Notes: generated by a model from the sequence alone, not told the origin. 38,664 nucleotides of DNA from Spirochaetaceae bacterium (GCA_031273985.1 JAISQV010000206.1:1-38664), one strand, 5' to 3'; shown: positions 5,114-37,278, counted from the stretch's first letter. Made by a program: numbers and translations.

Positions 5114-5134
5114 GGTAACTCCTTAAGGGTATGC

Positions 5135-10739: not shown

Positions 10740-11171
10740 TCATTCGGTGACGCGCACCCGCGCTATGTCGCGGACGCCCTCCCCGGTGATGGCCTGCATA
10801 AGGGCCTCGCCGGGCTCCCGCGCGGTGATAATGACGCCGAAGCCTGACTCCCTGACCTCAATGACGGCGTGATCGTAGAGGGTGCTGACGAGCCAGTTGG
10901 CCTGGCGGTGTTCCAGAACGGAGGAGAACTGGAGGGCCGCGCTTTCGCCTTTGGGGAGGGTAATCTCCAGGGTGTTAAAGACGGCCTCTCCCGCGTTCCG
11001 GGGAAAGCTGACAAGGGCTGCGGCGGTAAGGAAGCTGCGGCCGTCACGGTCCATGTCGTAGAAGGAAAGGGAAGCGGTTTTCCGGGTGAGGGCAAAGAAG
11101 AGGAAGGCCAGGAAGACCGCGTTGAGGGCCGCCGAGAGGAGGAGGAGCGCGGTTTTGGTTTTAGGGTTCAC
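10740..11171 (-). CDS. Membrane-anchored hypothetical protein
   Basis: The GTG start overlaps the trbI stop. N-terminal TM helix ALLLLSAALNAVFLAFLFFAL followed by a beta-rich domain. Confidence 0.6.
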   Translation of the reverse strand: MNPKTKTALLLLSAALNAVFLAFLFFALTRKTASLSFYDMDRDGRSFLTAAALVSFPRNAGEAVFNTLEITLPKGESAALQFSSVLEHRQANWLVSTLYDHAVIEVRESGFGVIITAREPGEALMQAITGEGVRDIARVRVTE

Positions 11172-12508
11172 GGCTGCCTTCGTATATAGCGCTGCCTGAC
11201 GGGATAATCCGGCACGGGAGGGAGGGAGACGGTACGGCTCAGCATGACGTTGACCTGGGTGCCGTTTTCGACGGTGAGGGTGGGCTGTACGCCCATGGCG
11301 CGGGAAACGATGTTACCGCCCGCCTCGTTGACGAATTCACTGTTGGCCTGGGCGATAGCCGAGGCGGTGGTGTCGGAGGCGTATTTGGCGGCCTCTTCGG
11401 TCATCTTGGCGTTGGCTATGGAGAACATGGTAATGATGCCTGCGGCCTTGAGGTATTCGAACCAGTTTTCGTGGTATTCGGCTTCCTGCCCCGCCATGCC
11501 GCGGCGGTCGACGCCGTTCATGCCGCCGAGGTCCGCCTGGAGCCCGTCGGGGCGTATCAGGGTGTCCCAGACGATTTGCACCCGGTGCTGGGCGTAAGAG
11601 ACGGAGCTGTTGTAGCGCGCCACGAGGACTGAGCCCTGGGGGATGAGGAGGTTGCGCCCGGTCCGGGAGTCGTAGACGTTCCGGGTTACGCGGGCGATGA
11701 CGCCGCCGGGAAGGTCCGTGTTGATAGCGGTCTCGAGGACGGCGGGAATGACGGTGCCTGGCCAGAGGGAAAGGTCCCCGGTGTAACGCCCGCCCGGAAC
11801 GGTTTCTTCGCCCCGCAGTGAATCCTGCGGGCCCGGTGCGGAGGGGTACGGCTCCGCCGCACCGGCCTGGCCGCGCGCCTGGGCGAGGTACCCCGCGGCG
11901 GCGTTTTGCCCCTGGCTTACCGCGTAGGGATACTGTTCCGCGTAGGAGCCCGGCGCGGCCTGGCCCGCCGTGTTCCGGCCGCCGAAGAGGCTCCCCTCTA
12001 TGGTTCCGGGAACGAGGGGGGAGAAGTAGGCGGTGGGGACGGCGGGGCCCGCGGCGCGGCCCGGCGGGGGAGCAGCCGGGGGCGGCGGCGCGGTTTGGGC
12101 GTAAGGCCGGGGGAGGGATTGCGGCGTTTCATCGCGGTAGACCGCGGGGAGGGAGGAGGCTTCGGGGAGGCCCGCGCCGGGGTCTTCACCGGCGGCCTGC
12201 AGGGAAAGCGCCCGGTCCCGCTGGCTGCGCAGAAAATCCGCCGGCGCGCGGGAGGCCGGGGCAGCGGAAGAGCCGGCGGTGTTTCTTTTCCTGGTCCGGC
12301 TTAAAGAGAAGATAAAACCTCCTGCCACGAGGATCACGAAAACGACGCTCACTATCCTGAGGACCTTGCCCCGGTCGAAAAAAGGCAGCGCCGGGGAAGG
12401 CGGGCCGAAGGAAGTGGCCGCGTCCGGAGTTGTTTCGTAGGACTCCTCCCCTGGGGTTTCCGGCGCCGGTTCCGGCGGGTCCGGTTTTTTTTCATCATAT
12501 GCGGCCAT
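11168..12508 (-). CDS. trbI: T4SS protein TrbI / VirB10
   Basis: Pro-rich N-terminus plus a TM helix. Conserved core VTRNVYDSRTGRNLLIPQGSVLVARYNSSVSYAQHRVQIVWDTLIRPDG. Confidence 0.9.
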   Translation of the reverse strand: MAAYDEKKPDPPEPAPETPGEESYETTPDAATSFGPPSPALPFFDRGKVLRIVSVVFVILVAGGFIFSLSRTRKRNTAGSSAAPASRAPADFLRSQRDRALSLQAAGEDPGAGLPEASSLPAVYRDETPQSLPRPYAQTAPPPPAAPPPGRAAGPAVPTAYFSPLVPGTIEGSLFGGRNTAGQAAPGSYAEQYPYAVSQGQNAAAGYLAQARGQAGAAEPYPSAPGPQDSLRGEETVPGGRYTGDLSLWPGTVIPAVLETAINTDLPGGVIARVTRNVYDSRTGRNLLIPQGSVLVARYNSSVSYAQHRVQIVWDTLIRPDGLQADLGGMNGVDRRGMAGQEAEYHENWFEYLKAAGIITMFSIANAKMTEEAAKYASDTTASAIAQANSEFVNEAGGNIVSRAMGVQPTLTVENGTQVNVMLSRTVSLPPVPDYPVRQRYIRRQP

Positions 12509-12509
12509 G

Positions 12510-13501
12510 TCAGCCTCTCCTCTTTTCGATGACGATCTCGCGGCGGCCCATTTTGACGGTGACGCGCTCTATGAGTTTGTCGATGATGATGATGTTGCCG
12601 GCGACGCGGTAGTTAACGATGTCGGCCCTGTTTTCGAAGACGGCGGGAAGGTCCTGCTGCAGGACGCTTTCCGGGAAGGTGATGTAGGTTTTTTTGCCGT
12701 CGTCGTAGACCAGGCTGGGGAGCCAGGAAGGTTTTGCGAAGAGACCGTAGGTGACGCGGTAGTTGAAGGAGAGGAAGCGGGGGTCTATGCCCGGAATGCC
12801 GGAAGGCTCGCCGTCTCCGCTCGGGCCTTCCGCCGCGCCGCCCGCAGCATCCGTTACGGCGCCGTCTGAGAGGGGGATATACGTGTTGGGCATACCGGTA
12901 GACAGGTAGCGCCAGCGCACCATGGGCATAAACACGTCGCGGTAGCTTTTCAGAATGATGTGATAGACCCGCCGGTCAGTGTTGATGATGAGGGAGGCTT
13001 CCAGGGAAGCCTCGGTGGGTTTCACGTAGATGTGCTGCACCGCGACGCCGTTTTCGATGTTGTAGCCGGCGCCGAGCATCCAGCGCTCGCTGTCGGAGAT
13101 GAAGGGGGCTTCCACGGCCTTTTCACCGGGCTCGAGCCGTATGTCGCTGGCCCGCAACGGCCTGGTTAGACCTCGTAGACCCAATCGCTGTGGTAGTCGT
13201 AGATCATGGCAGCCCTTGAGTATTCGGAGGGCTGGAGAATACCGTCGCTGTTGGAGCGGGAAACAGCGCCCCTGCCCCGCTCCGGGGGCTGCGGGGCGGG
13301 GCTCTCCGCGTCCGGAGGGTAGACGGGGCGCTCTATTTCGATGACGAGGGGCGGCGGCATTTCGATGGGCACGGTGAGGATGGCGGGAGGCTCCCTGGGG
13401 ACGGTCCCCGCGGCGCTCTGGCGGACCCGTTTTTCCATATCCACGGAGGCGCAGGAGAGGAGCAGCAGGGCGAGGGCGAGGGCTGGCAGTATTCGTGTCA
13501 T
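12510..13501 (-). pseudogene. trbG: T4SS protein TrbG / VirB9, split by a single-nucleotide frameshift at ~13166
   Basis: The N-terminal ORF (13166-13501, lipoprotein-like signal, ends ...YDYHSDWVYEV-stop) and the C-terminal ORF (12510-13184, ...TRPLRASDIRLEPGEK...) join into one VirB9-like protein if one base is restored in GTCTAACC. Confidence 0.8.
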
Positions 13502-14181
13502 AGTTCGGTCATCTCGCAGTTTTCGATATAGACGCCCAGGGGGTTTTTCCTGATGGTGGCGTCGCTCACGGGCAGCAGCTTTACGGTAACGAGGGCGCGC
13601 ATACGGGTGTTGCGCCGGGTAGAAGAGCTGTCGACGACGGTTTCCACCCAGTCAACCTGGTAGGAGCTGCCCGTGATTTTGAGCACGCTTTCTATTTCGA
13701 CGGAGCGCCGTGATTTCCCCACGAGGTCGAAGGGGGAGGCTCCCCGCAGAAAACGTGTCATGACGGGTTCGTAGGAAGCGGTGATCATGGCGTAACATTC
13801 GTCGATGTTGTTGTAGAGCACCTGGGGGTCGGTGGAGACGGAGCGGAGATTAGTGATGAACTTACGGGCCTGGTACTGGATGGCCGGTTCGGGCACCTGG
13901 AAGGCGGCGTTCTGGCGCACTTCCCCCAGGTACTGGGCTTCCCCGGAGGGCATTACGTTGACCAGCACGGGGACGGTTTTCTGGGTTCTCACGGCGTAGA
14001 CATTGAAGGCGAGGCTGGCCGCGAAGAGGAGCAGGACGCCTATTCCTACGATACCCCGCCACCAGGCCATCTCCTTCTGTTTGTCGAGGAGTATGTCGGC
14101 GTAGGCCCTGTCCTGGCCCTCCCGGAAGGGGTTCGGCAGGTCAAGCGGTTTGTAGACGGTGGATTTGTGCTGCGCGGGCAT
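13498..14181 (-). CDS. trbF: T4SS protein TrbF / VirB8
   Basis: Single N-terminal TM (IVGIGVLLLFAASLAFNVYAV) plus a periplasmic NTF2-like domain pattern. Position in the operon and 4-nt overlap with trbG. Confidence 0.85.
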   Translation of the reverse strand: MPAQHKSTVYKPLDLPNPFREGQDRAYADILLDKQKEMAWWRGIVGIGVLLLFAASLAFNVYAVRTQKTVPVLVNVMPSGEAQYLGEVRQNAAFQVPEPAIQYQARKFITNLRSVSTDPQVLYNNIDECYAMITASYEPVMTRFLRGASPFDLVGKSRRSVEIESVLKITGSSYQVDWVETVVDSSSTRRNTRMRALVTVKLLPVSDATIRKNPLGVYIENCEMTEL

Positions 14182-14192
14182 GGGGTTCCTGC

Positions 14193-15695
14193 TCAGGCCC
14201 TGTCTTCAGGCCTGTCTTCGGTACCGGTACCGGCGGCGCGGTTCCGGCGCTGTTCGGCGCGGTACATATACTCTTCCCCGGCGGAGGTGCCGGCTTCGCG
14301 GCGGCTTTCGAGCTGTTCGCCGAAAGTTTTCTTGCTGCCGTCGGCGTTGGTTTCTGACAGGAAATGCTGCCGCTGGCTGTGGCGGTTTACGCCGCTGCCC
14401 GCTCCGGAGCTTCCGCCGCCGCTCCCCCCGCCGCCGCCGCCGAGGAGGCTCCGGGCGAGGTCGCCGCCTGAGGAGAGCAGGGCCTGCCCTGCGCTGCCGG
14501 CGAGGCTGCCCATGAAGGCTCCGGCCTTTTGGCCCTGGGTGCCGCCGAGGGTGCCCGCGGCTTTGGCCGCGGCCCCCGCCTGGGTGAGGGCGCCGACGCC
14601 GGCGAAGGCGGTTTGCGCCGCGCCCCCGGCTATCGCGCCCCCGGCCTGTTGCGCCAGGCGCATGGTCGCGCCGGCGGCGGCCAGGGCCCCGCCCGCCGCC
14701 GCTATGGCCCCGCCGGCGCTCAGGGACGGCGTGCCCGTCAGCAGCGACTGGGCCAGGGCCGGCGCGCTCTTGCAGAGAAAGAAGAAGAGCAGGCTTACGA
14801 AGAGCACGATGAGTATTTCGTCCGGGCGGCCCGTGAAGGGGGTCGCCGTGTAGCCTCTGGCCAGGGAGAGGAAACCGTAGAGCATGAGGAAAATACAGAT
14901 ATTGCAGAACAGCAGTTTTATGAAAAAGCCTATGACGGCGCCGACGAGCTTCTCGGCCATGAATTTGCTGCCCTCCCAGATGGAGAGGGGGAAGAGGATG
15001 ATCCCCACGCCGGTAACAAGCATATACTCCAGGAAGGCCATGAGGTATTCCAGCACGGCCAGAATCCCGGTGAGGATGACGAAGAAGCCGCACACCAGCC
15101 CGATGATGACCCGGCCAAAATCACTGGGAAGACCCCCAATACCTGTTGGCGCCTCCTCGGAATACCTGATGCACTCTCCCGCGATGAGGAGGACCACCTC
15201 CAGGGCCGCCGCGGGGGCGACGCAGGTGTAGGCCATGCCCCGGTGTTCCCGCGTTACCAGAAGGTTTGTGAAGTACATCAGGGGGTTCCGCTCTTCGGAA
15301 ACCTTGGCGGACCTCGTCGCGCGGGTGCCGTAGGTGCCCCTGACCGGGGAGTCATTCCGCTCCGCCTCTTCGGCTATGGCCTCCCGGGCCTGGTTCAGGT
15401 AGGCCTCGATGGAGAGGTAGGTGCTGGCCCGGGCCTTCTCGAAGGTCCAGGACGTTATGTGCCCAATGATCCGGGGGTAGGCCAGCATGATCACGATGAA
15501 GAAGATCACGGCCTTGCCTATCTTGATCAGGTTTTCCTTGAGCCCCTGGCCGGTGAGGGCGTAGTTGATCGCCGCGAGGGCCAGGGCTATGAAGAAGACT
15601 ATGCGCCCTATGGCCCAGGCTTCGCGGAGGAAGAAGGCCTGGAGGTCTATGAGTTTGTCGATGACATAGAAAAAGGCTTCGTTGAGGGTGTGCAT
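14193..15695 (-). CDS. trbL: T4SS protein TrbL / VirB6
   Basis: Polytopic membrane protein with a Gly/Ala-rich C-terminal tail. GGAGGAG RBS. Operon position between trbJ and trbF. Confidence 0.85.
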   Translation of the reverse strand: MHTLNEAFFYVIDKLIDLQAFFLREAWAIGRIVFFIALALAAINYALTGQGLKENLIKIGKAVIFFIVIMLAYPRIIGHITSWTFEKARASTYLSIEAYLNQAREAIAEEAERNDSPVRGTYGTRATRSAKVSEERNPLMYFTNLLVTREHRGMAYTCVAPAAALEVVLLIAGECIRYSEEAPTGIGGLPSDFGRVIIGLVCGFFVILTGILAVLEYLMAFLEYMLVTGVGIILFPLSIWEGSKFMAEKLVGAVIGFFIKLLFCNICIFLMLYGFLSLARGYTATPFTGRPDEILIVLFVSLLFFFLCKSAPALAQSLLTGTPSLSAGGAIAAAGGALAAAGATMRLAQQAGGAIAGGAAQTAFAGVGALTQAGAAAKAAGTLGGTQGQKAGAFMGSLAGSAGQALLSSGGDLARSLLGGGGGGSGGGSSGAGSGVNRHSQRQHFLSETNADGSKKTFGEQLESRREAGTSAGEEYMYRAEQRRNRAAGTGTEDRPEDRA

Positions 15696-15697
15696 AG

Positions 15698-16546
15698 TTA
15701 CTCCTCCGCTATGGGTTCAAAGAGGCTGCGGCCCCACATTTCGGAGAGGTCCGGGGGGTTGGGCGGGGTTCGGGATTGCCGGTCCCGGCTGAGCTGGTAC
15801 TCGTTGAATTCCGCGGTATCGTAGGAGATCTGGCGCAGGACGCGGTTGGTGTTGAGCGCCGCCTCCGCGAGGAGGGAGAGCAGGCCCTTCTCGCCCATGC
15901 GCTCGCTTTCGGGCAGGCTGCGGTCCTCTTCAAGCCGGGCGAGAGTCGCCTGGTCCTGTTCGGTGTCCCTCATGTGCTCCTCGTTCATGAGTTCCAGTTT
16001 GGTCATGATGTTACGCGCCAGGGTTTCCTCCCGCGCTTTCCAGGTCTGCACGTAGACATAGTTGGCCGGGGTGAGGCCCAGGTTAAGCCACATTTCCCGG
16101 CGCTGGCGCTCCGAAAATTCGTTATCCCAGTAATCCACGTAGGTTGATTCCATGGCGGCGGGGATCTCCGCCACGTCGGCCAGGCGGTAGGTGCGGCCTC
16201 CTATGCGGACGCCCATCCGGTTAAAGCGGGTTTCGGCCTGGCGCTCCAGGTAGAGCTGGCGGTTGTACCAGTCCATGAAGTCGTCCCAGCTGTTCACGCG
16301 GGTAACGTTCCTGAGGTTGTCCAGGGCCATTTGCTCCATGCGGAGCATATTCTGGAACTGGTTGTAGGTGTTCATGGCGTTTTCCACCATCTGGGCTATG
16401 GACTGGGCGTAGTAGGCCGCCTGGTCCAGGTGGGTGGCGCTCATGATGCCTTCCAGGATGGGGGCGGTAACGGCCATCTGCGCGCGGGCCCCCGGGGCCC
16501 CCCAAACGGAAAACAGAATCAGCGCGCTTAGCAACAGCTTTTTCAT
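15698..16546 (-). CDS. trbJ: T4SS protein TrbJ / VirB5
   Basis: Signal peptide MKKLLLSALILFSVWGAPGARA followed by a helical/coiled-coil protein. Position immediately upstream of trbL. Confidence 0.75.
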   Translation of the reverse strand: MKKLLLSALILFSVWGAPGARAQMAVTAPILEGIMSATHLDQAAYYAQSIAQMVENAMNTYNQFQNMLRMEQMALDNLRNVTRVNSWDDFMDWYNRQLYLERQAETRFNRMGVRIGGRTYRLADVAEIPAAMESTYVDYWDNEFSERQRREMWLNLGLTPANYVYVQTWKAREETLARNIMTKLELMNEEHMRDTEQDQATLARLEEDRSLPESERMGEKGLLSLLAEAALNTNRVLRQISYDTAEFNEYQLSRDRQSRTPPNPPDLSEMWGRSLFEPIAEE

Positions 16547-16734
16547 GGGGTTCTCCTCGTAGAACGGGTTATCGTTTCGGGCTACAACTGTTCACGCCGG
16601 GGGGAGTTTTGTTGTTACCGTCCGGCGGGGGATTTTAAGGGGGCGGAGCCCCCTTAGGAGAGGGGGGAGCGGAAGACCGCCGGTACTGCCGAAGGCAGGG
16701 ACGGCGGTCTGCAGCGGGGGGGAGGCTTCCCCCT

Positions 16735-17155
16735 CTAATATATAGTATTGGTTTTAACGCTTTGAGACCAAGCTTCAGCTATAGTGTAATCAGTAAAGGC
16801 ATGAGTAATTACGATACTTCCTTTTTCCGCAAAGCCAGCTACCGTAAAAGCATATTGCGAATCAGCAATGTTAATTTGAACACCGGAATATTGGGCGGAT
16901 ACATTCCAAGCTTGCAGGCTTGGCAGTAGAATTTCGTCTCCCGATACAAGGAAGCCGTTATTGGTTGCCAAACCAATGGTAATGAAATAAAGCCTGCCGT
17001 TCCTGACGTGCGGCATTATAACTTCAAGGGTAGTGCCGGTCTGCGAAAATTCATGCAGATAGTCCGCAATGATACCGGCTACATACACGGGCTCATTATC
17101 CTGCTGGGCAAAGAGGGCGGCGCCGCAGGGCTGACAAAAACAGTGTTTTTCTCAT
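16735..17155 (-). pseudogene. Small secreted-protein paralog P3, signal peptide disrupted by an 8-bp deletion
   Basis: ATG 17155 reads MRKTLFLSALRRRPLCPAG-stop. Relative to P2, the 8 nt CTGTGCTG are missing. The mature part is intact in another frame (track ORF 16735-17088). Confidence 0.7.
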
Positions 17156-17209
17156 TTGTTTCCCCTTTAGTAATGTGCAAGCCTGAGCGTTTGGGTCCAT
17201 CTATCCGCG

Positions 17210-17647
17210 CTAATAGTAATACGCAAGCCTGGCAGTTTGGACCCAATTCTCCAATGACTCATTATCAGGGAAAACATGGGTAACAATAATCCTTCCTGCC
17301 TCCGCAAAACCTGCGACGAATAAATGACCAGTATCGGAGCTGACATATTCAGTTTGACGGCCTTGGTATACGCCAAAAACAGTGTGTTCTGGCGATAGAA
17401 TAAATTGAACGCCGGGTCTTAAATTACCGTCTTCGGCAGGTAAGGCAGGGCTGAGAAAATACAATCGGCCATTTCGGATGAAAGGTTCAAGCTCTTTCAT
17501 CTCTTCATTTTCCATGCCGTTTTCTGCAAATTCACAAACGTAAGGACCGACAAGAAAATGATTCACATAGACGGGCTCATTATCCTGCTGGGCAAAGAGG
17601 GCGGCGCCGCAGCACAGCAGGGCTGACAGAAACAGTGCTTTTTTCAT
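17210..17647 (-). CDS. Small secreted/lipoprotein-like protein, paralog P2
   Basis: AAGGAG RBS. MKKALFLSALLCCGAALFAQQ signal. Paralogous to P1 and P3 (shared VAGFAE.G.I..TH.F). Confidence 0.75.
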   Translation of the reverse strand: MKKALFLSALLCCGAALFAQQDNEPVYVNHFLVGPYVCEFAENGMENEEMKELEPFIRNGRLYFLSPALPAEDGNLRPGVQFILSPEHTVFGVYQGRQTEYVSSDTGHLFVAGFAEAGRIIVTHVFPDNESLENWVQTARLAYYY

Positions 17648-17658
17648 TTGTTTCTCCT

Positions 17659-18078
17659 TTAGTAATGTACAAGCCTGAGCGTTTGGGTCCATCTATCCGC
17701 TGTTTCATAATCGGTAAAGATATGGGTAAGAACAATTTTTCCGGTTTCGGCGAACCCAGCGACAAAAAGAGGGGTTTCTGTGTCAATATTATTTATACGA
17801 TTACCTTGATACGTGGCGAAAACAGCCTGGGAACCCGGCAGCATAATAGAGTCTCCCGACACGAGGGAGCCGTTATGTATCGCCAAGCCAACAGAGGTGA
17901 AGTAAAGCCTGCCGTTTCTGACGTGCGGCATTATACTCTCAAGGGTAGTGCCGGTCTGCGAAAATTCATGCAGATAGTCCCCATAGGCACCGGCGACATA
18001 GACGGGCTCATTATTCTGCTGGGCGAAGAGGGCGGCGGCGCAGCACAGCAGGGCTGACAGAAACAGTGTTTTTTTCAT
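17659..18078 (-). CDS. Small secreted/lipoprotein-like protein, paralog P1
   Basis: MKKTLFLSALLCCAAALFAQQ signal. The ATG overlaps the stop of the upstream PLD-like fragment (ATGA). Confidence 0.75.
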   Translation of the reverse strand: MKKTLFLSALLCCAAALFAQQNNEPVYVAGAYGDYLHEFSQTGTTLESIMPHVRNGRLYFTSVGLAIHNGSLVSGDSIMLPGSQAVFATYQGNRINNIDTETPLFVAGFAETGKIVLTHIFTDYETADRWTQTLRLVHY

Positions 18079-18350
18079 TCTTTCATCCTTCTCAGAAAGC
18101 CGGCATAGATTTTTTCACCCAATTCGGCAAGGCCCCATTTACTGGAGTCATAGCTGTCGGTAACAAAGAGGCTGTTGAAGTAGCGAAGCAATTCATTGAC
18201 AACTTCCGGGTTCCTGAAGGTGAGGCATGATTCGGTATTGGTGTTCATACCGTATTCCGTAAAATTGAGGGAGCCCAGGTAAGCGCTTTCAATAAGGGCA
18301 TAGGGCATTTTACCGGAACGTTCAGGTTCCGTAAGGGGAGACTCGTCCAT
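18075..18350 (-). CDS. Degenerate PLD/Nuc-family C-terminal fragment
   Basis: GGAGGAAAG RBS before ATG 18350. GKMPYALIESAYLGSLNFTEYGMNTNTESCLTFRNPEVVNELLRYFNSLF matches the second half of an HKD motif (K...GS.N.T......N.E......P.......F). The catalytic His position is Ser and the N-terminal half of the fold is absent. Confidence 0.55.
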   Translation of the reverse strand: MDESPLTEPERSGKMPYALIESAYLGSLNFTEYGMNTNTESCLTFRNPEVVNELLRYFNSLFVTDSYDSSKWGLAELGEKIYAGFLRRMKE

Positions 18351-18416
18351 GCGGCTTTCCTCCTTCCGCGGGCGCATTGTAGCACGGGGGGAAGGGCGGC
18401 GCAAGGCGCCGGCGGG

Positions 18417-18650
18417 CTAGGTGGCGGTCTCTGTTACCCTGTAATCTTCGAGTTCTTTGAGGCGCCGGCGGGCGAGTTCCTCTACGATGTCCCCGGGAAG
18501 CATATCGAGGAATTCCTTATAAACGAGGCGCACTTTTCTCCCCGGTTTTGCCGGGGGGATGTCGGAGCAATCAACGGGGTGATTTTTTATTTCGTCAATT
18601 TCCCTGTCGAGGGCTGCCGGCTCATCGAAGGTATTGTCTGAACTGATCAT
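18417..18650 (-). CDS. brnA: BrnA-like antitoxin (DUF4415-like)
   Basis: GGAG RBS before ATG 18650. D-x-SDIPP motif (VDCSDIPPAKPG) and a C-terminal helical segment. Overlaps the brnT 3' end by 29 nt. Confidence 0.6.
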   Translation of the reverse strand: MISSDNTFDEPAALDREIDEIKNHPVDCSDIPPAKPGRKVRLVYKEFLDMLPGDIVEELARRRLKELEDYRVTETAT

Positions 18651-18942
18651 AATAATCTCCTGCTTCCACAGCCTCCGCGCGGCGGGCCGAAAAGACGCGT
18701 ATGAAACCGCCCCGGTAGGTAACGGAGACGGTAACGAGCACATGGCTGGCCAGGCCGGTGACGGAACCTGTAACATTGAAACGGTCTTCGGAGGTTGAAT
18801 TTTCACGGTCGTACTCTTCAATCAGAAAAGGATCGGAAAAGACCGCCGCGGCCGTTTCAAACCTGACGCGGTGTTTTTTCAGGTTTAGTTCCGCCTTTTG
18901 GGCGTCCCATATAAATTTATCTTTGTAGACAACATCGCCCAT
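18622..18942 (-). CDS. brnT: BrnT-family ribonuclease toxin (DUF497)
   Basis: FIWDAQKAELNLKKHRVRFETAAAVFSDP...EDRFNVTG...IRVFSARRA matches the BrnT pattern (F.WD..Ka..N..KHgv.FeeA..vF.Dp...E.R....G....iRiISAR). ATG 18942 was chosen over the track start. Confidence 0.8.
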   Translation of the reverse strand: MGDVVYKDKFIWDAQKAELNLKKHRVRFETAAAVFSDPFLIEEYDRENSTSEDRFNVTGSVTGLASHVLVTVSVTYRGGFIRVFSARRAEAVEAGDYYDQFRQYLR

Positions 18943-19000
18943 GAAAAGACACCATGTAAAACTATAGTATAGCGCCAGCCCTGCGTCAATCCGGCGCGCG

Positions 19001-21823
19001 TCACACAACCTGCGGCACGTTGCCTTCCCTGATGCGGGGGAGGGACTTACAGGCGGCGTAGAGGGTGATTTCGCCGCGTTTGACGGCCTCCACGAGGTCC
19101 GGTGTTCCGTTTTTGAGGAGGCTGCGGGCCTGGTAGACGGTGGAGGGGCTGACGCCTAAGCGTTCTGCGAGGCGCTCCGCGGCGCGCCCCGCGCCGTCTT
19201 TCCGCTTGCGCTGCGGGAGGGCGGCCACGGCGTCGAGGAGCTCCGCGGTTCCGGCATCGGGGATGGCCGCCGCGGTTTCGGGGCCGCGTTCCTCCCGCCC
19301 GGGTTCGGGTTGAGGCGCGGGCGCGGGAACGGCGGCGCGCTGCGGGGCCTCCCGGGGAGCGTCGGGCCCCCTGAGGGAGCGCCAGGGGACGCGGGCGTGG
19401 TCGAGTATATCGGCGCAGAGGGAGACGCCGCCGCCTTTTCCGGCGAGGAGTGCGTCGAGGAATGAGTGGTCGGCGCTCCCGATAAGGGCGAGGGTGAGGC
19501 GCCCGAGGTCGAGGCGGAAGAGGCGGCGCCCGAGGGGGCTGGTGTAGAAGTAATCCCGGCGCATTTCCGCGCCGGCAATGAGGGCTATTTCAGGGTCCGT
19601 GAGGCCGAAGGAACGGTAGACGGGCATCATGTTCTCGGTGAGGGCGGAGGGGTCCGCGAGGTAAATTTTGGTAAGGCACTGCTGGGTGATGGTGGTTTTG
19701 AGGGGCGATTTTTCGACGTCTGCGACGTCCTGGGTGGCGAAGACGACGAAGACATTTTTCTTGCGGAGCACCTTGAGCCATTCGGTAATTTTTTCGGCGA
19801 AGACGGGATTTTTGAGGAAGAGCCAGGCCTCGTCCAGGACGAGGAGTGTGAGGCGGCCGTCGAACAGTTTTTCTACCAGGTTGAAAAGGTAGACGAGGGC
19901 GGGGACGACGCAGCCTTCGCCGCGGTTCATGAGGGCCTCCATTTCAATGGCGAGAAAGGAGGTGTCCAGGGAGAGGGCTGAGGAACGGGCGTCGAAGATT
20001 TTGCCGTATTTGCCGCCGTCCCAGAGATAGTCGCCGAGCATTTCTTTGAAGACCGGGCGTTTTGAGACGGGGTCGAGGTAGTTGACGTACTGGAGGAAGC
20101 TGGTAATGGTGCGGGAAGCCGGGGGCTTTTCGCGGAGGAGTTCGAGGCTCTGCTTAATCTGGGCGCGCATGGGCGGGGAGACCTCGTAGCGGTTGACGGC
20201 GAAGCAGGCTTCGATGAAGTCGATGGCGTTCATGATGTCGCGGTCGGTTTCGAGGTCGCGGAGGGGCTGGAAGCTGACGGCTGCGGCGTTTTCGCCGGCG
20301 GGCTCGTAGAAGAGGCCTCCGGCGGCGAGGCAGGGCTGGCGGCAGGAGCGGCCCTTGTCGAAGACGATGACGCGGGAAGCGGGGTACTTGAAGAACTGCA
20401 TTTCCAGGAGGTTGAGGAAGGTGGACTTGCCCGCGCCGGTGGGGCCCCAGACGGCGGAGTGGCCGACGTCGGAGGGATTCATGTTAAAGAAGAAGGGTGT
20501 GCCTTCCTCGGTGGAGCAGATGAGGTGCGGGATGTCGACACCGGAGACGAGGCCGGCGTGTTCGTTACGGCGCATCCCGGCCCATACGGAGGAGAGGGGG
20601 AGGACGTGGGAGAGGGAGTAGGTCATGACGGGGAGGGAGCGGTAGTTGGCGTAGACCTGGCCCGGCATCATGGACTTCCATGCTTCGAGGGCGTTATAGG
20701 TTTCCTCCTTGCAGGTGAAGCCGGCGCTGTTGACGACAGCTTTTACTTTGTCTGCCTTTTTTTTGGCGGCTTTGAGGTCCCTGTCCCAGACCATGACGCA
20801 GCTCGTGTAGTAGCCGAGGGCGGCCTGGCCGGTTTCTATTTCTATCTGGGCGTCGATGGAGTCGTTTTCCTTGACTCCCGCGCCGTGGTTGACGGTTCTG
20901 GCGGGCTGCCCTGAGGTACTTTCAGCGAAGGTCTGCAGGAAGGTAGTTTTGCTGCCGCGGTGGGCCTTTTCTTTTTTGTGGGCCTCCTTTTTGCCGTCAT
21001 CCAGATCGAGGCAGATATAGCGGGAGACCCAGCGGTATTCGATACGGGAGCGGTTGAGTGTGTCGAGGATGGCGGGGTAGCTGTCTTCCGGGAAGTCGTT
21101 GACGCCGATGACAGGGATAAAGCAGTCGCCGAGCTTCATGGTGAGGGAGGTAACGAGCTCTGAATCCGGCAGGATGCGGTCGAGGAGTATCCTGGTTGCG
21201 GGGAAACGGATGGGGTGCCGGTTGAGGGAGACGCTGGAATGGAGGTAGGCGACGGTCTCCTCGTTGGAGAGGGGGGCGAGAAGCATATCGCGGGAAAGGA
21301 GCGCGGCAACGGCGTCTGTTTCGTTGACAAAGAAGTCTACGTTCTGCTTAATACCCTGGGCTCCTCCCGGAGCGTCCTGGTCCCTCCCGCTGCGGATGAA
21401 CATTTGGGTAAGCTTTTTCACGTTTTCCGAAGGGGGCTTCCAGATGAAGGTGAGGTAGTAACTGGACTCGAAGTGCTCGCCCGCGGCGCGGAAGGCGGCC
21501 TCCCGTTCGCGGTCTATGAGGTAGGGGGCGAGGGCGTCGAAGGAGCCCGGACGGCCGCCGAAGCCGGCCCTGGGGTATTCGGTGGTGTAGAAACGCTGGG
21601 CCTCCAGCTGGAAGGCCCAGCCTGAGCCGAGGCGTCTGGCGAAGTCGTTGACGCGGATGGCGAGGCTGTTGACCTCGAAGGCGCCTGAGGAGTCGATGTC
21701 CGGCGCGCGGTAGGCGAAGGAGCGCTGGAGGATTCCGTCTTTCTGGATGACGACACCTTCATGGAAACGGGTGATGAAGTTCCAAGGGAGGATTTGGTAG
21801 AAGAGGCCTGTAGATTCGCTCAT
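19001..21823 (-). CDS. trbE: T4SS ATPase TrbE / VirB4 with an extra C-terminal ParB-type HTH tail
   Basis: Walker A GPTGAGKST and Walker B LLVLDEAWLF. The N-terminus LPWNFITRFHEGVVIQKDGILQRSFAYRAPD is typical of TrbE. The last ~110 aa are a Pro/Ala linker plus an HTH paralogous to the ParB-like protein of this element. Confidence 0.9.
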   Translation of the reverse strand: MSESTGLFYQILPWNFITRFHEGVVIQKDGILQRSFAYRAPDIDSSGAFEVNSLAIRVNDFARRLGSGWAFQLEAQRFYTTEYPRAGFGGRPGSFDALAPYLIDREREAAFRAAGEHFESSYYLTFIWKPPSENVKKLTQMFIRSGRDQDAPGGAQGIKQNVDFFVNETDAVAALLSRDMLLAPLSNEETVAYLHSSVSLNRHPIRFPATRILLDRILPDSELVTSLTMKLGDCFIPVIGVNDFPEDSYPAILDTLNRSRIEYRWVSRYICLDLDDGKKEAHKKEKAHRGSKTTFLQTFAESTSGQPARTVNHGAGVKENDSIDAQIEIETGQAALGYYTSCVMVWDRDLKAAKKKADKVKAVVNSAGFTCKEETYNALEAWKSMMPGQVYANYRSLPVMTYSLSHVLPLSSVWAGMRRNEHAGLVSGVDIPHLICSTEEGTPFFFNMNPSDVGHSAVWGPTGAGKSTFLNLLEMQFFKYPASRVIVFDKGRSCRQPCLAAGGLFYEPAGENAAAVSFQPLRDLETDRDIMNAIDFIEACFAVNRYEVSPPMRAQIKQSLELLREKPPASRTITSFLQYVNYLDPVSKRPVFKEMLGDYLWDGGKYGKIFDARSSALSLDTSFLAIEMEALMNRGEGCVVPALVYLFNLVEKLFDGRLTLLVLDEAWLFLKNPVFAEKITEWLKVLRKKNVFVVFATQDVADVEKSPLKTTITQQCLTKIYLADPSALTENMMPVYRSFGLTDPEIALIAGAEMRRDYFYTSPLGRRLFRLDLGRLTLALIGSADHSFLDALLAGKGGGVSLCADILDHARVPWRSLRGPDAPREAPQRAAVPAPAPQPEPGREERGPETAAAIPDAGTAELLDAVAALPQRKRKDGAGRAAERLAERLGVSPSTVYQARSLLKNGTPDLVEAVKRGEITLYAACKSLPRIREGNVPQVV

Positions 21824-22077
21824 GGTAAGAAGACGTCCTTTTGGGAAATATTCTCGATGACGATGTCAATCATCCAGGGGTCCTTTCCGGTGAGGTAGCG
21901 CATGATGAGGTAGAGTATGACGATGGGGACGATGGTGAAGTAGAGTTCGAAGCCGTAGATGAAGATGACGGCGAGCATGAAGAGGAGGAGGAGGCCCGTT
22001 TGGGGGACACCTCCGGCGAGGTCCCTTGAGAGGAGGGAGCGGCGCACACGGCGTTTGTAGGGGGTCATATCAACCAT
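21820..22077 (-). CDS. trbD: T4SS protein TrbD / VirB3
   Basis: 85 aa with two hydrophobic segments. 4-nt overlap with trbE. Position after the pilin gene. Confidence 0.75.
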   Translation of the reverse strand: MVDMTPYKRRVRRSLLSRDLAGGVPQTGLLLLFMLAVIFIYGFELYFTIVPIVILYLIMRYLTGKDPWMIDIVIENISQKDVFLP

Positions 22078-22079
22078 GG

Positions 22080-22373
22080 TCAGCCCTGGGACGCGTTCCA
22101 GATGGCGTCGATGATGAGGGAAGCGCAGACGAGGATGGCCACGGCGATACCGATGGCGATAGCGTTACGCTTCATTTTTTCGTTGTCCTTGTTGAAGCCG
22201 TAGGCGACGGCGCAGCCGCAGAGGCAGATGATGAGGATGGTCTTTACGAAGGTGCCGGTAAAGACCGTCAGAATATCCTCCATGAGGCTGGTCATGCCTG
22301 AGGGGAGGATGTCCTGCGCGGAGAGCGGCAAGGAGCGCAGGGCGAAGAGAAGGAGAAGCAGCAGTAATTTCAT
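22080..22373 (-). CDS. trbC: T4SS pilin TrbC / VirB2
   Basis: 97 aa. Signal peptide (LLLLLLLFALRSLPLSA) followed by two hydrophobic helices. Sits directly upstream of trbD. Confidence 0.75.
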   Translation of the reverse strand: MKLLLLLLLFALRSLPLSAQDILPSGMTSLMEDILTVFTGTFVKTILIICLCGCAVAYGFNKDNEKMKRNAIAIGIAVAILVCASLIIDAIWNASQG

Positions 22374-22412: not shown

Positions 22413-23360
22413 TCAGCGGGCCGTTCCGCTTTCCCGTATTTCCTCTACCGTGAGGGCTTCGTCCACGACGGGCCCGAAACCCCTGCGGTAGGAAAGGTGC
22501 ACGACGATGTTGACAGCGTCGGCCAGGTCCGGAAGGGTACCGGCTATTTTCTGGCGGAGGAGGCCCTCGATGCGGGAGAGGGTGGAGGAGGCGCTGTCGG
22601 CATGGATGGTGGTGATGTTGCCGGGGTGGCCGGTGTTCCAGGCTTCGAGGAGTTCCACGGTAACATCGCCGGAACGCAGCTCGCCGAAGATGATGCGTTT
22701 CGGGGTCCAGCGGAGGGCGGTCTGGATGGCGGCGACGGCCTGCTCTTTTCTGATGTAGAGCTGGGTTTTGTTTTTGCCCCGGCACTGGAGTTCCGGGAGA
22801 TCCTCGATGAGGTAGAAGCGGTCGTCCGGCGAAAACTCCCGCATTTTTTCGATACAGGCGTTGGTGAAGGTGGTCTTGCCGGAACCTGTGGAGCCGGAAA
22901 TGACCATATTACTGCGGCGCTCTATATGGGCGACTATCTTGCGGTAGAGCTTTGCTGAAAGCCGCCCCTGCTCGCGGTATTGTTCGAGGGTGAAGACATC
23001 GCCCGCGGGGCGGCGGAAGGTTATTTCCGGGGACTCCACCCAGGGGGGCACGATGGCGGTAGTTCTGATCTTGTAGTCGGGGATGATGCTTTCCAGGGTG
23101 GGCCGCTCCCAGGTATCGATGGGGGTGTCGGAGACATTGGCCAGGCTGTTAATGATGCGCATACGCTCGGCGGGGGAGAGCCTGATTTCGGTGTCGTAAA
23201 GGCCTTTTAGAAAGTCATCGCACTGCACCGCGCCGTCTCCGTAGACATACACGTTGGTAACGGAGGCGGTCTCGAAGAAGGGGATGAGCGGGGCGAGATC
23301 GCCCATGAGGTTTTCCATCTCGCGCTCACGGCGCTCGAGCCCGTCCTCAATCCTGCCCAT
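22413..23360 (-). CDS. trbB: T4SS ATPase TrbB / VirB11
   Basis: Walker A SGSTGSGKTT, plus GELRSGD and GHPGNITTIHA motifs. ATG 23360 with a GGAGAA RBS was preferred to the TTG at 23399. Confidence 0.9.
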   Translation of the reverse strand: MGRIEDGLERREREMENLMGDLAPLIPFFETASVTNVYVYGDGAVQCDDFLKGLYDTEIRLSPAERMRIINSLANVSDTPIDTWERPTLESIIPDYKIRTTAIVPPWVESPEITFRRPAGDVFTLEQYREQGRLSAKLYRKIVAHIERRSNMVISGSTGSGKTTFTNACIEKMREFSPDDRFYLIEDLPELQCRGKNKTQLYIRKEQAVAAIQTALRWTPKRIIFGELRSGDVTVELLEAWNTGHPGNITTIHADSASSTLSRIEGLLRQKIAGTLPDLADAVNIVVHLSYRRGFGPVVDEALTVEEIRESGTAR

Positions 23361-23784
23361 CAGGTTCTCCGGAGAAATAGGTATGCAGGAGCCTTTCAAA
23401 GAAAGGGGGGTCGTTTTTAAGGCTTTCCTGGAAAGCCCTGAAGAAGGTGTCGTGCCGGGCGGAGGCCGATTTGAGGGCGGCGTCTGCCAGGTCCTGGTCT
23501 ATCTCCGCGTTATAGGCGAGCAGGTTGATGTGCATGAGGCGGAGGTAGCGGAAGGTGATGTCCAGCATATCCCCGAGCTCGTCCATTTTTTTCCGCATAT
23601 CGCCGAGGCCCTGGAGTTTGAGGGTTTCGTCCCGGTAATCGGCGTAGATGTACCTGGTTATGGCGTGGCGGATGAGCTCGGATTCGCTTTCGAGGCCCTT
23701 GTCCCTGCAATAGGTTTTGATGTCCGCCAGCATCTGCACGGGAAGGGAGCAGAGCTTTTTCTTCAGTTCCGGGCGTTTAGTCAT
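23347..23784 (-). CDS. Ribbon-helix-helix (CopG-like) protein
   Basis: KKLCSLPVQMLADIKTYCRDKGLESESELIRHAITRYI is an RHH pattern. ATG 23784 overlaps the traG stop. The upstream part of the track ORF was rejected. Confidence 0.7.
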   Translation of the reverse strand: MTKRPELKKKLCSLPVQMLADIKTYCRDKGLESESELIRHAITRYIYADYRDETLKLQGLGDMRKKMDELGDMLDITFRYLRLMHINLLAYNAEIDQDLADAALKSASARHDTFFRAFQESLKNDPPFFERLLHTYFSGEPDGQD

Positions 23785-25882
23785 ACGCGCCGGCCTTGAG
23801 GAAATTAGGGATTTCCCCGTCCTCCGGGAGGTCCTCCGCGTAGTCCCCGGCGGGGCCGTCTTCCGGGCCTGCTCCCTCTTCGGACTCGCCGCTGTAGCCG
23901 CCGTCATCGTAGAGCCCCCGGAGCTTTTCCTCCTGTTCCGCCAGGACCGCGGGGTCTTCGGCCTCGCCTTCCGGCGCGAACCAGCGGGGGCCCGAAAGCT
24001 TCGCTATGGCGGGCCGGGCTGCGCGCAGCGCGCCCTCCCGGTCGGTGAAGGCCGGCGGGAAGAGGCGCGCCTTGAAGACCGGGTCATCGTAGTACACGTT
24101 TTTTTTACCGATATAGGGCGGCTGCCCCTGGCAGATGAGAATGAACTCGTCCAGGGGGAGCTTCATCACCTCGTCGGCGTTGATAAGATTGCGCTCCTGG
24201 TCCTGGGCGCTGAGGCTCGCATTGTTGAAGCCCAGGGCCCCCCTTGCGCCCGAATAACTTATATTGGCCCGGCTTACGGATTCCCTGCCGCAAATCTTGC
24301 TTATGGTCTCGGCGTTATCATATTCCCCGGCGCCGGGGGCGTAGAAAATAGTGTTGCGGCAATGGGCCAGAAAGGAATGGTCTTTTCCGTAGATACTGTT
24401 GAGCTGGTTTATCGATTGGAAGATCAGGAAGTAGTGGATACCGAACCCGTTATGGATGCCCATGTTCATGTGCAGCTCCTCCATTTTGCCGAGCTTGTCG
24501 AACTCGTCGAGGATGAAGAGCAGGGGGATTTTGAATTTACGGTTTGTCGCCTGGGTTTCGCCGGAGGTGAAGCGGCGGGAGAAGAGCAGCACGAACATAC
24601 GGATCAGGGCGCTGATACGCTGGACGTCTGAGTACTGGATGGTGATGTACAGGCTTACGGGCACGGGGCTTTCCACAAATTCATCGATGTAGAATTCCGA
24701 GTTTTGGGTGTTGCGCTTGATTTTGGCGTCGGCGAAGACGGCCAGTGCGTTATTTACGGTGGAAAGCACGGAGCCGCCCTCGTCGCCGGGTCTTTTGCGC
24801 TGCGCGCCGGCGCCCTCCACGACGGACTGATGAATGGCGGGGTCCCCGTGGTCCGCGTTGATCATCAGATCGTAGATGTATTTGGTGTTTCCGGGGTCCG
24901 AGGGGTCCTGGAGTGCAAGGAATTCCCGGCATCCTGCCAGACTCTTGTTGGGCCAGTCGGAGCAGAGGCAGTGCAGGATCAGGGCTGTAAGGAAGTCGCG
25001 GGCCGCCGTGGTGAAGTGCTCGCTGGTGGCGTTGCCGGAGCCGGAGGCCGGCGTGGTGAGGATGTCGGCTTCGAGGTTGGCGTCGCTGAAGGCGTCCTCG
25101 CCCCCGCGGATCTCCATCATGGGGTTGAAGTGGTGCCCGGCGTTACCCACGGGCTCCCAGCGGTAGACCTTGCCGAATTTGGCGCGGAACCCCGAAGTCA
25201 GGTTGAAATTCTCTCCCTTGAAGTCCAGTACGATGACGCTGCCGGGATATGAGAGGAGGGTCGGTATGACGCTGGAGACGCCCTTGCCGCTCCGTGTGGG
25301 CGCGGAAAGGACGGTGTTATAGATGCCGGCCTGGATGATCTTCCGGGAAGGTTTGAGAAGATGCAGCACCACGGAATCCTTTTCCGTGTCGTAGACGGCG
25401 GAAAGCCGCGCCGCGCCGGTCTCTCCGAGGATCATGCCGCCCCGGAGCCCGAGGATGCCGGCCTTTTTCAGGTCCCGCACCGTGGCCCAGCGCGCCGTCC
25501 CGAAAATATTCTGTTTCCGGTTGCGCAGTATGATGAATTCGAGGAACAGGTAGAACACGATGGCGGAGACGGAGGTGTAGCCCGCTATTTTGACGGCCTC
25601 GTACAGGAAGGGATGTATGTCGAGGCGTTTGTAATAGACCAGGCACCAGTAGAAGATCAGGTAGGGCTTATACAGGGGGTAGGAGACGTTCCCGAAGCGG
25701 AGTACGGAGAAGGGAGCCCCCACCCAGCCGGGCTCGTAGTTCACGAGGGCGCAGAATCTCTGCGTACTGGCCCAGAAGCCGGCGATGATGATGAGGAAGG
25801 TTGTCAGTTTGAACAGCAGGCTGAGGAGCTGCTCTCCGGTGGTATCAACGGGCTTGCCCCGCAGGAATTCGTTCTTACTCAT
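23777..25882 (-). CDS. traG: Type IV coupling protein TraG / VirD4
   Basis: N-terminal TM segments, Walker A APTRSGKGVSSVIPTLL, Walker B LLFILDEFDKLG. Confidence 0.92.
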   Translation of the reverse strand: MSKNEFLRGKPVDTTGEQLLSLLFKLTTFLIIIAGFWASTQRFCALVNYEPGWVGAPFSVLRFGNVSYPLYKPYLIFYWCLVYYKRLDIHPFLYEAVKIAGYTSVSAIVFYLFLEFIILRNRKQNIFGTARWATVRDLKKAGILGLRGGMILGETGAARLSAVYDTEKDSVVLHLLKPSRKIIQAGIYNTVLSAPTRSGKGVSSVIPTLLSYPGSVIVLDFKGENFNLTSGFRAKFGKVYRWEPVGNAGHHFNPMMEIRGGEDAFSDANLEADILTTPASGSGNATSEHFTTAARDFLTALILHCLCSDWPNKSLAGCREFLALQDPSDPGNTKYIYDLMINADHGDPAIHQSVVEGAGAQRKRPGDEGGSVLSTVNNALAVFADAKIKRNTQNSEFYIDEFVESPVPVSLYITIQYSDVQRISALIRMFVLLFSRRFTSGETQATNRKFKIPLLFILDEFDKLGKMEELHMNMGIHNGFGIHYFLIFQSINQLNSIYGKDHSFLAHCRNTIFYAPGAGEYDNAETISKICGRESVSRANISYSGARGALGFNNASLSAQDQERNLINADEVMKLPLDEFILICQGQPPYIGKKNVYYDDPVFKARLFPPAFTDREGALRAARPAIAKLSGPRWFAPEGEAEDPAVLAEQEEKLRGLYDDGGYSGESEEGAGPEDGPAGDYAEDLPEDGEIPNFLKAGAYD

Positions 25883-25918: not shown

Positions 25919-26128
25919 TTACCATCCTCCTTTACTGCACGGAAGCAGGGCCTGAACCGTTTCATCAAAAGCCGTATCTTCTTTCGGGGCCCGGTCCGTT
26001 TCCGGCACACAGGCGGAACAGAGATACTTCTCGGCCCAGTAACAGGGAACGCCGGTCTTCTCAATACATTGGTGACAGTCGTCATCGGTACAGCCGCACA
26101 CCCGGCACCGGCGTTTTCCGGCGCTCAC
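25919..26128 (-). CDS. Small cysteine-rich (zinc-binding-like) protein
   Basis: 69 aa. RCRVCGCTDDDCHQCIEKTGVPCYWAEKYLCSAC. 4-nt overlap with the upstream gene. Confidence 0.6.
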   Translation of the reverse strand: MSAGKRRCRVCGCTDDDCHQCIEKTGVPCYWAEKYLCSACVPETDRAPKEDTAFDETVQALLPCSKGGW

Positions 26129-27045: not shown

Positions 27046-27173
27046 GATTGACTCCTTTGCGTTTATTTTCACCGCCTCAAGAGAAGCGATTAAAAAACCC
27101 TCCAAGGCGTGTTATAACCAGCTTTATCTTTTTACTTTTTTTCATACCGTATCGGCATCCTTGCCCGGTATGG

Positions 27174-36923: not shown

Positions 36924-37278
36924 GTCCAAAAACTCCTTGCGGTTTTTATGTCCCGCCGACAATTTTTTATGTTTAACCGCATAAGCGGGTAACACCATTT
37001 TTACGGTATCAGTGCCGATACCAACGGCCCCCATGAGCCCTTCTTACCTTCGTTCTCGATTTGCAGGCAAAGTACGCCGTCTTCCCGCTGTCCCCGAAGT
37101 TAAATTCGATGGGTCTTTTTTCCGTATGGTGAAGAAAGACTTGCGGAAGTCGCAGGGGTTTGCGGGAGGCGTTTCACCGGGGGCGGCTACCGGCGGCCTG
37201 TTTTTGCCCCCGAAGGGGGCGGTTTTGCCTAAGAATGAGAAAAACAGGGAAAAAAGCGGGAATTTACCTATTGGGTGC

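Follow-up and report, generated by a model that had tools for sequence, protein, structure and literature searches.

We analyzed a 38,664-nt stretch of DNA from a Spirochaetaceae bacterium (GCA_031273985.1, JAISQV010000206.1:1-38664), hereafter called the window, and the block at positions 16735 to 18942, which lies between the conjugation genes trbE and trbJ. The region is an integrative conjugative element (ICE) in a chromosome, as indicated by a tyrosine integrase near one end and housekeeping genes beyond the other. We conclude, with high confidence as to the anatomy of the slot, that the block is how this element fills an accessory slot that is permanently present in a family of Treponema-type spirochaete ICEs. 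The slot spans from the stop codon of trbE to a terminator/leader unit located before trbJ (before trbL in some relatives). It would form the 3' end of a trbB-E transcription unit rather than the inside of an indivisible operon, a transcription-unit structure that we infer for the window. Since the slot was present in all related loci, it is a lineage-wide feature and not a one-off interruption. More tentatively, three exported paralogs encoded in the block are candidate recipient-side exclusion factors analogous to TrbK, a role that we regard as possible although somewhat short of an even chance. For the explanation as a whole, slot anatomy and exclusion function together, our compromise estimate is that it is evenly balanced between right and wrong.

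The trbE-trbJ slot in related elements

We compared the window with a related set of 13 distinct loci, mostly Treponema/Spirochaetaceae metagenome contigs (L004 is a duplicate of L003). A scan of a genome collection with TrbJ found a single Treponema contig from a metagenome-assembled genome, with only 676 nt upstream. A metagenome scan with a 10-sequence alignment gave two loci; the match in L009, 42 residues long and at chance level, was not used. All 13 related loci showed a variable, AT-richer gene set at the trbE-trbJ junction, the contents of which are listed in Table 1, and trbE abutting trbJ was seen in none of them. The same backbone position therefore holds differing accessory genes, both across the 13 loci and on the TrbJ tree, which is what defines an ICE hotspot.

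Hotspots of the SXT/R391 type are fixed intergenic positions in the transfer backbone that carry variable accessory genes, including toxin-antitoxin and defence genes, with a composition unlike that of the backbone. The slot resembles them in its fixed backbone position and its differing, compositionally distinct accessory genes. It differs from them in being found in spirochaetes with a Trb/MPF-T-like (mating-pair formation) type IV secretion system (T4SS), in having a sequence-conserved intrinsic terminator with a leader as one of its boundaries, and in that part of its content, the exported family and a PLD gene, is ancient. An integron-like cassette array was considered and rejected, as the hairpin/terminator occurs once per locus (twice in L015) and not once per gene, and no integrase is found at the slot.

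On its right side, the slot of the relatives closes with one conserved intrinsic terminator, GCCG[CT]CC-loop-GGGGCGG followed by a T-run. It was present in L001, L002, L003 (7486-7556), L005, L006, L008, L010, L011, L012, L014, L015, and L016; L001 and L002 have extra sequence after it, L016 carries a variant, and L015 carries two copies. Downstream of the terminator, most loci have a conserved AAGGGTAGAAAC box and, about 20 nt further on, the ribosome-binding site and start of trbJ (of trbL in L008). Candidate roles of the box are a promoter element, an operator, or a processing site. Because the conserved terminator ends the slot, the slot would close the trbB-E unit in the relatives, and trbJ-I would either restart or rely on regulated read-through.

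The window differs at this edge. Its spacer before trbJ has a minimum free energy of -79.4 kcal/mol (z = -4.6 versus dinucleotide shuffles) and contains hairpins at 16718-16733, 16674-16710, and 16636-16656, essentially where an earlier note on this DNA had placed three strong hairpins. None of them is followed by a U-tract, and a terminator scan of the minus strand found no terminator there. Compared with the relatives, the window lacks the exact conserved terminator motif; at the equivalent place the middle hairpin reads GCCGTCCC...GGCGGTC, also given as GACCGCCGTCCC[...]GGCGGTC, with no T-run. Read-through into trbJ would therefore be more plausible in the window.

The earlier note had presented the block as an interruption of an otherwise contiguous operon, with co-expression with the mating apparatus guaranteed. 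Neither part is borne out in that form: an equivalent slot exists in all 13 related loci, that of the relatives ends at a terminator and a trbJ leader, and brnT has its own promoter-like site. Two observations on which that note had staked the interruption do stand, namely a real GC difference and the fact that the same genes are not universal at this position; the universality of the slot itself and the presence of the paralog family in 7 of the 13 related loci speak against it.

The junction also bears traces that we attribute to recombination. In L008 and L015, slot genes and a terminator copy follow trbJ. In addition, some slot genes, drawn from two unrelated families, end in an in-frame copy of the C-terminal tail of TrbJ (LSExWG..F.PI..E). 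The carriers are P0129, P0131, P0145, and the 157-aa lipoprotein of L003, with sites at L003 7387-7461 and L014 1647-1736. The tail DNA of L003 is about 85% identical to the 3' end of L003's own trbJ. We rejected a shared targeting motif as the explanation of the tails, since the DNA itself has been copied; as DNA-level copies of the element's own trbJ 3' end, they look like recombination footprints. Taken with the slot genes behind trbJ in L008 and L015, the tails suggest that the slot and trbJ have changed their relative order by recombination. No trbJ-derived DNA was found in the block of the window.

Base composition and age of the slot genes

With a GC content of 0.491 (z = -3.6), the block is richer in AT than any of the 642 same-length windows elsewhere (mean, 0.600; standard deviation, 0.030; minimum, 0.529). 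This bears out the earlier observation that it is visibly poorer in GC than its flanks. GC content at third codon positions (GC3) was 0.40 to 0.62 for the block genes, 0.73 to 0.85 for the T4SS genes, and 0.77 to 0.86 for chromosomal housekeeping genes. Across the 11 loci measured, slot GC was 5 to 19 points under that of the flanking trb genes, and in nine of them the difference was 10 to 19 points. A 192-aa open reading frame (ORF) past the housekeeping genes (36456-37034, minus strand), which matches no Pfam family, is AT-rich like the slot (GC, 0.45; GC3, 0.45).

Such a composition, with GC3 values of 0.40 to 0.62 against about 0.8, could be taken to mean that the block is foreign cargo that landed recently inside the trb operon of one element and rides on T4SS transcription, and the window's spacer without a canonical terminator would permit read-through into trbJ. 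The comparative data largely exclude this model, which we consider highly improbable. Besides the equivalent slot in all relatives and the promoter-like site of brnT, three lines of evidence tell against it. First, L014 shares the BrnT/BrnA/family architecture at 42-46% protein identity, which implies that the arrangement is old. Second, orthologs of the par2 type and the PLD have diverged as much as trbJ. The ratio of nonsynonymous to synonymous substitutions (dN/dS) is 0.18 to 0.34 in the family overall and 0.18 to 0.21 between par2 and its orthologs, and family dN is lower than or similar to trbJ dN between the same elements. These values argue that the family genes are constrained by purifying selection and are as old as the backbone.

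Third, the GC3 of the family tracks that of the neighboring trbJ across seven elements (window, L002, L008, L010, L011, L012, and L014; Spearman coefficient, 0.96; P = 5e-4). Although divergence is equal, family GC3 lies well below trbJ GC3, by about 0.3 in six elements and by 0.18 in L008. Tracking at such a persistent offset suggests that low GC is maintained in slot genes over time and that their composition does not point to recent import. Speculative causes are a lower rate of homologous exchange, and with it reduced GC-biased conversion, or selection acting on expression. The term cargo, used in the earlier note, therefore does not suit the family and the PLD, which are old residents of the slot.

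The exported paralogs and their candidate role

The three paralogs of the block (par1, par2, and par3) are 49-63% identical to one another. An exhaustive profile search of 1.84 billion proteins placed them in a family of 45 cluster representatives, mostly of 138 to 190 aa. A word-index search with par1 recovered no members beyond those of the window. Pfam, NCBIfam, and PADLOC have no model that matches the family, and a tblastn search of 72,556 plasmids with par2 gave no match. The family-bearing loci are the window, L002, L008, L010 (two copies), L011, L012, and L014 (two copies), and every member with readable flanks adjoins trbJ. Two old subtypes can be distinguished: par2 groups with the second copy of L010 and the members of L011 and L012 (54-59%), while par1 groups with the first copy of L010 (41%). 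Both subtypes occur in the window and in L010.

DNA alignment revealed an 8-bp deletion in par3, between 17129 and 17128, which frameshifts the signal-peptide region and leaves a 117-aa ORF without an export signal; par3 has probably become a pseudogene recently. In front of it, at 17168-17206, 39 nt from the 3' end of par1 are repeated. The signal-peptide DNA of the paralogs is near-identical (92% over 95 nt between copies 1 and 2), and the mature parts have diverged. We interpret par3 as a later, mosaic duplicate resembling par1.

All intact family members carry an N-terminal signal peptide. A lipobox-like cysteine is found in 8 of the 32 aligned members, the remainder having a signal-peptidase-I-type site (xFA|QQ), and the window copies (LLCC) are ambiguous. 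An AlphaFold2 model of par1 (pLDDT, 92.4) contains a signal helix and a small beta-barrel with flanking helices. Searches of this model against the PDB and BFVD gave no match at an E value of 1e-3 or lower. The best fold neighbors were the OB folds of RPA14/32 and CusF (TM score, about 0.42; E > 1e-3), and we use "OB-like" to describe the shape of the fold only.

An exported slot protein was always present in the related loci. These proteins come from at least six unrelated families and are patchily distributed on the TrbJ tree. Unrelated exported proteins or lipoproteins occupy the position of the family in L001/L006, L003, L005, L015, and L016. Profile comparison of the family with the 123-aa and 157-aa proteins of L003, the 190-aa protein of L005, and the 162-aa protein of L006 detected no homology (probabilities, <8%). 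In L016, the 200-aa exported protein encoded before trbJ (7290-7892) is built from a 33-residue unit (HSLETYKNRVEEILNDTTLGKKQMNFLWGSYAASE) repeated about five times in tandem.

Published entry-exclusion genes show a similar pattern (PMC8923210; PMC4027160). Their place is between trbJ/virB5 and trbL/virB6. The validated TrbK of pKPC_UVA01, a lipoprotein of 151 aa (PMC8923210), falls in the size class of the family. Like the slot proteins, which are predicted to be exported, TrbK (IncP plasmids RP4/R751, Ti plasmids, and pKPC_UVA01) and Eex (IncN plasmids pKM101/R46) are small exported proteins encoded inside the mating-pair-formation operon near trbJ/virB5 and trbL/virB6, and they are non-homologous between plasmid groups. 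In L008, the PLD and family module lies at the classical trbK position, between trbJ and trbL, and L015 has an unrelated lipoprotein gene there also. The precedent of trbK for accessory genes in this part of the operon, drawn in the earlier note, thus applies within this family of elements. On this pattern, an always-present exported protein from unrelated families, patchy on the tree and sometimes encoded between trbJ and trbL, we propose a TrbK-like role for the paralogs. The envelope proteins of the trbJ side, here two old subtypes and one frameshifted duplicate, would be made in the element-carrying cell, act in its periplasm or membrane, and stop a related donor at the entry step that depends on TrbJ/TrbL. 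With two diverged subtypes, the element would exclude a broader set of relatives.

Several points weigh against this explanation. The paralogs have no sequence similarity to TrbK or Eex and match no TrbK/Eex model in Pfam or NCBIfam (E ≤ 0.05-0.1). Most members have signal-peptidase-I-type signals, not the lipoboxes of TrbK/Eex. The family genes of the window and most relatives lie directly upstream of trbJ rather than between trbJ and trbL. A further contrast to TrbK/Eex is that the family genes come in tandem sets of two or three diverged copies, with a PLD gene linked to them. An exclusion role does not explain the PLD linkage, which is seen in three loci and twice as an ATGA overlap. As to the slot, the related loci are metagenome contigs, many of them short, and the block of the window, which lacks the conserved terminator, may be read through into trbJ. 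Finally, trbG is frameshifted in the window and, barring an assembly error, the transfer apparatus may not be functional.

The PLD gene adjoins a family gene in three of the seven family-bearing arrangements: the two overlap by an ATGA in the window and L008 and are 10 nt apart in L011. The ORF of the window is a remnant. It aligns to residues 151-214 of the intact 246-aa PLD of L008 (36% identity; E = 1e-14) and to the L011 PLD (45% over 42 aa), and PADLOC gives a DrmC match. It lacks the intact HxK(x)4D(x)6GSxN motif and the full domain of about 130 residues. The ORF corresponds to the C-terminal third, some 70 residues, and the L008 alignment begins past the His-x-Lys position, so that the catalytic His region has been lost. 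Hence, the window copy of this old companion of the paralog family is catalytically dead. The remnant still has a strong ribosome-binding site (AAGGAGG) and a start codon (ATG at 18350), and it ends in an ATGA overlap with the start of par1; its translation probably still feeds the coupled par1 start. A 17-nt direct repeat with one mismatch (18404-18420/18460-18476) brackets the brnA-like 3' end at the junction with the remnant and may have been left behind by the truncation of the PLD gene.

The intact PLDs of L008 and L011 contain one HxK(x)4D/G(x)6GSxN motif and are closest to the single-HKD nucleases NucT, Zucchini, DrmC, and DpdK. By eye, they have no signal peptide, and they have no recognizable secretion domain. 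Among known systems they best match Nuc of IncN plasmids, NucT of Helicobacter pylori, DrmC of DISARM, and DpdK; Nuc is likewise carried by conjugative IncN plasmids. They differ from Nuc, which has a signal peptide, and the window copy differs from all these nucleases in retaining only its C-terminal residues without the catalytic His. The L011 PLD (4914-5681) is unusual in that Gly replaces the motif Asp (HxK(x)4G) and in a hydrophobic insertion of about 45 residues, with two predicted membrane helices, inside the PLD domain.

The linkage of the two genes, together with the similar divergences of PLD and family and the export of the family, raises the possibility that the paralogs act in the periplasm against the PLD, as its immunity or inhibitor proteins. 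The toxin of the window would have decayed, leaving an orphan immunity array that protects against PLD-armed relatives. Orphan immunity genes, as at the type VI secretion Tle/Tli and similar loci, are usually tandem diverged copies without a toxin, which the block resembles. Nevertheless, we consider this unlikely. The PLDs are nuclease-like, less similar to phospholipase toxins, and, with neither a signal peptide nor a secretion domain, look cytoplasmic, so that a periplasmic partner would have no obvious access to them. Furthermore, four family-bearing loci (L002, L010, L012, and L014) have no PLD. There is also an outside chance that the 140-aa family represents a new T4SS-linked class of periplasmic OB-fold proteins that partner a PLD nuclease, either in capture or hand-over of incoming single-stranded DNA in the periplasm as a form of exclusion or in immunity to a conjugation-delivered PLD effector, with the two ancient subtypes pairing as a heterodimer in the manner of RPA14/32.

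Alternatively, the paralogs could act on the donor side, as TrbJ/VirB5-associated adhesins or mating-pair stabilizers that set recipient specificity, with unrelated lipoproteins in the same role elsewhere. The constant association with trbJ, export, a confident globular fold, purifying selection, and the TrbJ tails on some slot proteins would all be in keeping with this. We judge it rather unlikely: the tails are DNA-level footprints of recombination, not a shared targeting motif, and a structural piece is unlikely to be replaced by non-homologous proteins in elements whose TrbJ is 52-57% identical to that of the window. Moreover, the N-terminal piece of TrbG bears a lipobox (LLLLSC), which makes TrbG itself a lipoprotein, and a VirB7/TrbH-like anchor is therefore not missing.

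It is also very unlikely that the block is decaying junk without current function in a degenerating element. The truncated PLD, the frameshifted par3, and the split trbG would suit such decay, but brnT, the brnA-like gene, par1, and par2 are intact with good ribosome-binding sites, the dN/dS of the family is 0.2 to 0.3, and the frameshifts could be recent events or assembly errors. The reading we prefer thus remains that of a standing slot whose trbJ side encodes candidate exclusion proteins.

Toxin-antitoxin genes and the transfer genes around the slot

Five elements carry toxin-antitoxin genes at the trbE side of the slot, and three different toxin families are represented: the window and L014 have BrnT, L006 has PemK, and L016 has HipA; L015 retains a BrnA remnant. 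This recurrence fits addiction or defence modules that would stabilize the element. The trbE side would thus hold self-contained modules helping the element to persist, brnT-brnA here, PemK or HipA in relatives, and the DrmC/NucT-like PLD. The BrnT of the window is 42% identical to that of L014. As in the BrnT/BrnA prototype of Brucella abortus, a gene with a BrnT domain (PF04365) comes first, followed by a small overlapping gene, and a promoter-like site lies just upstream of brnT, overlapping the trbE 3' end region. Unlike the prototype, the downstream 77-aa ORF matches neither the BrnA model nor any other in Pfam, and it has no match in NCBIfam or the PDB. Homologues of this ORF lie downstream of BrnT in L014 (44% over 36 aa) and, as a lone copy of 56 aa, in L015 (46% over 46 aa); from its position and this conservation we regard it as a putative antitoxin. 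The contents of the block are thus as the earlier note listed them (brnT-brnA, a degenerate PLD fragment, and three tandem paralogs), save that the brnA-like gene has no support from profile hidden Markov models.

The surrounding genes form a Trb-type (MPF-T) T4SS operon in the Ti-like order B-C-D-E-J-L-F-G-I, together with a coupling protein and a relaxase. This order had been called canonical before, and Pfam backs every name in it except TrbJ. The TrbJ-like gene has no Pfam match. Its protein matches the NCBIfam VirB5 model faintly (E = 0.023, residues 3-55 only), and an exact-protein lookup returned no record. A signal peptide, its size, and its position fit TrbJ, and it precedes TrbL in all loci; 186 homologues were found. 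Its AlphaFold2 model is all-helical and of low confidence (pLDDT, 55), too poor for a fold search. The nearest relatives of the element are Treponema/Spirochaetaceae metagenome bins, and a literature search on conjugative elements of Treponema or termites found nothing relevant.

The split trbG consists of 111-aa and 224-aa ORFs that overlap by 19 nt, with the junction at about 13166-13184 on the minus strand. The two pieces match residues 1-110 and 112-314 of an intact 317-aa CagX-domain protein in L003, and the split reflects a frameshift, due either to a pseudogene or to an assembly error. The trbE of L002 (3273-6107) was called as two genes (446 and 493 aa), possibly a second frameshift in a transfer gene among these elements.

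TrbE has a C-terminal extension of about 130 aa (19001-19400, minus strand) that is GC-rich (0.74) and Pro/Ala-rich and ends in an HTH-like segment. It is kept in relatives, with TrbE of 930-945 aa in L003, L006, L015, and L016 and a 52% identical fragment in L012; a DNA-binding tail on a VirB4 ATPase would be unusual. Two other GC-rich patches (0.76-0.79), within trbI (11800-12200) and trbL (14400-14800), presumably encode low-complexity Ala/Gly/Pro linkers, as in the TrbL of L001.

Table 1. Features of the window, by position, and gene contents of the slot in related loci
Feature	Position	Strand	Remarks
Tyrosine integrase	809-2254
TrbI/VirB10	11168-12508	-	Pfam TrbI
TrbG/VirB9, split	12510-13501	-	Pfam CagX piece, 12510-13184
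TrbF/VirB8	13498-14181	-	Pfam VirB8
TrbL/VirB6	14193-15695	-	Pfam TrbL
TrbJ-like gene (VirB5 position)	15698-16546	-	282 aa; first gene after slot, right boundary of slot
GC-rich spacer	16547-16734	-	188 nt; three hairpins
Paralog 3 (par3)	16735-17155	-	par1-like (63% aa); frameshifted
Paralog 2 (par2)	17210-17647	-	145 aa; widespread subtype
Paralog 1 (par1)	17659-18078	-	139 aa; exported OB-like protein
PLD-nuclease remnant ORF	18075-18404	-	PLDc_2 positions 92-131 only, below cut-off
brnA-like gene, putative antitoxin	18417-18650	-	77 aa; overlaps brnT by 29 nt
brnT, type II toxin	18622-18942	-	106 aa; PF04365, E 1.3e-21, 77 bits vs cut-off 34.5, full-length match
Sigma-70-like promoter match	18961-18989	-	TTGACG-17-TATAGT; 10/12 consensus matches, consensus match only
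TrbE/VirB4	19001-21823	-	Pfam P-loop_TraG, CagE_TrbE_VirB; HTH_23 at residues 882-910; stop codon is left edge of slot
TrbD/VirB3	21820-22077	-	Pfam VirB3
TrbC/VirB2	22080-22373	-	Pfam TrbC
TrbB/VirB11	22413-23399	-	Pfam T2SSE
TraG/VirD4 coupling protein	23777-25882	-	Pfam T4SS-DNA_transf
ArdC-like gene	26125-27105	-	Pfam
Relaxase	28021-29280	-	Pfam Relaxase
Housekeeping genes, NAPRTase and PRK/uridine-kinase-like	beyond 32.7 kb
L001 slot			3' end of homologue of L006 162-aa lipoprotein; contig ends there
L002 slot			PD-(D/E)XK protein, family member
L003 slot			two unrelated lipoproteins (123 aa, 157 aa)
L005 slot			190-aa lipoprotein
L006 slot			antitoxin-like gene, PemK toxin, BspA-type LRR protein, 162-aa lipoprotein
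L008			trbJ, intact PLD, family gene (ATGA overlap), terminator, leader, trbL
L010 slot			72-aa gene, two family members
L011 slot			family member, intact PLD
L012 slot			family member, CsgG-like lipoprotein
L014 slot			BrnT, BrnA, 100-aa lipoprotein, family member, N-terminally truncated second copy
L015 slot			BrnA remnant and 98-aa lipoprotein before trbJ; 199-aa lipoprotein after trbJ
L016 slot			aspartic-protease-like gene, HipA kinase, 200-aa exported repeat protein

Together, these comparisons show the layout of accessory genes in a little-studied family of spirochaete ICEs, with one fixed slot that would end the first trb unit. The low GC content of an accessory region need not mean recent import, as the slot genes have co-diverged with the backbone. 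Known ideas, namely ICE hotspots, TrbK/Eex, and addiction modules, are extended to a new clade, and current understanding is not overturned. For the entry exclusion expected of conjugative elements, the unannotated but confidently folded family of exported proteins provides a concrete candidate.

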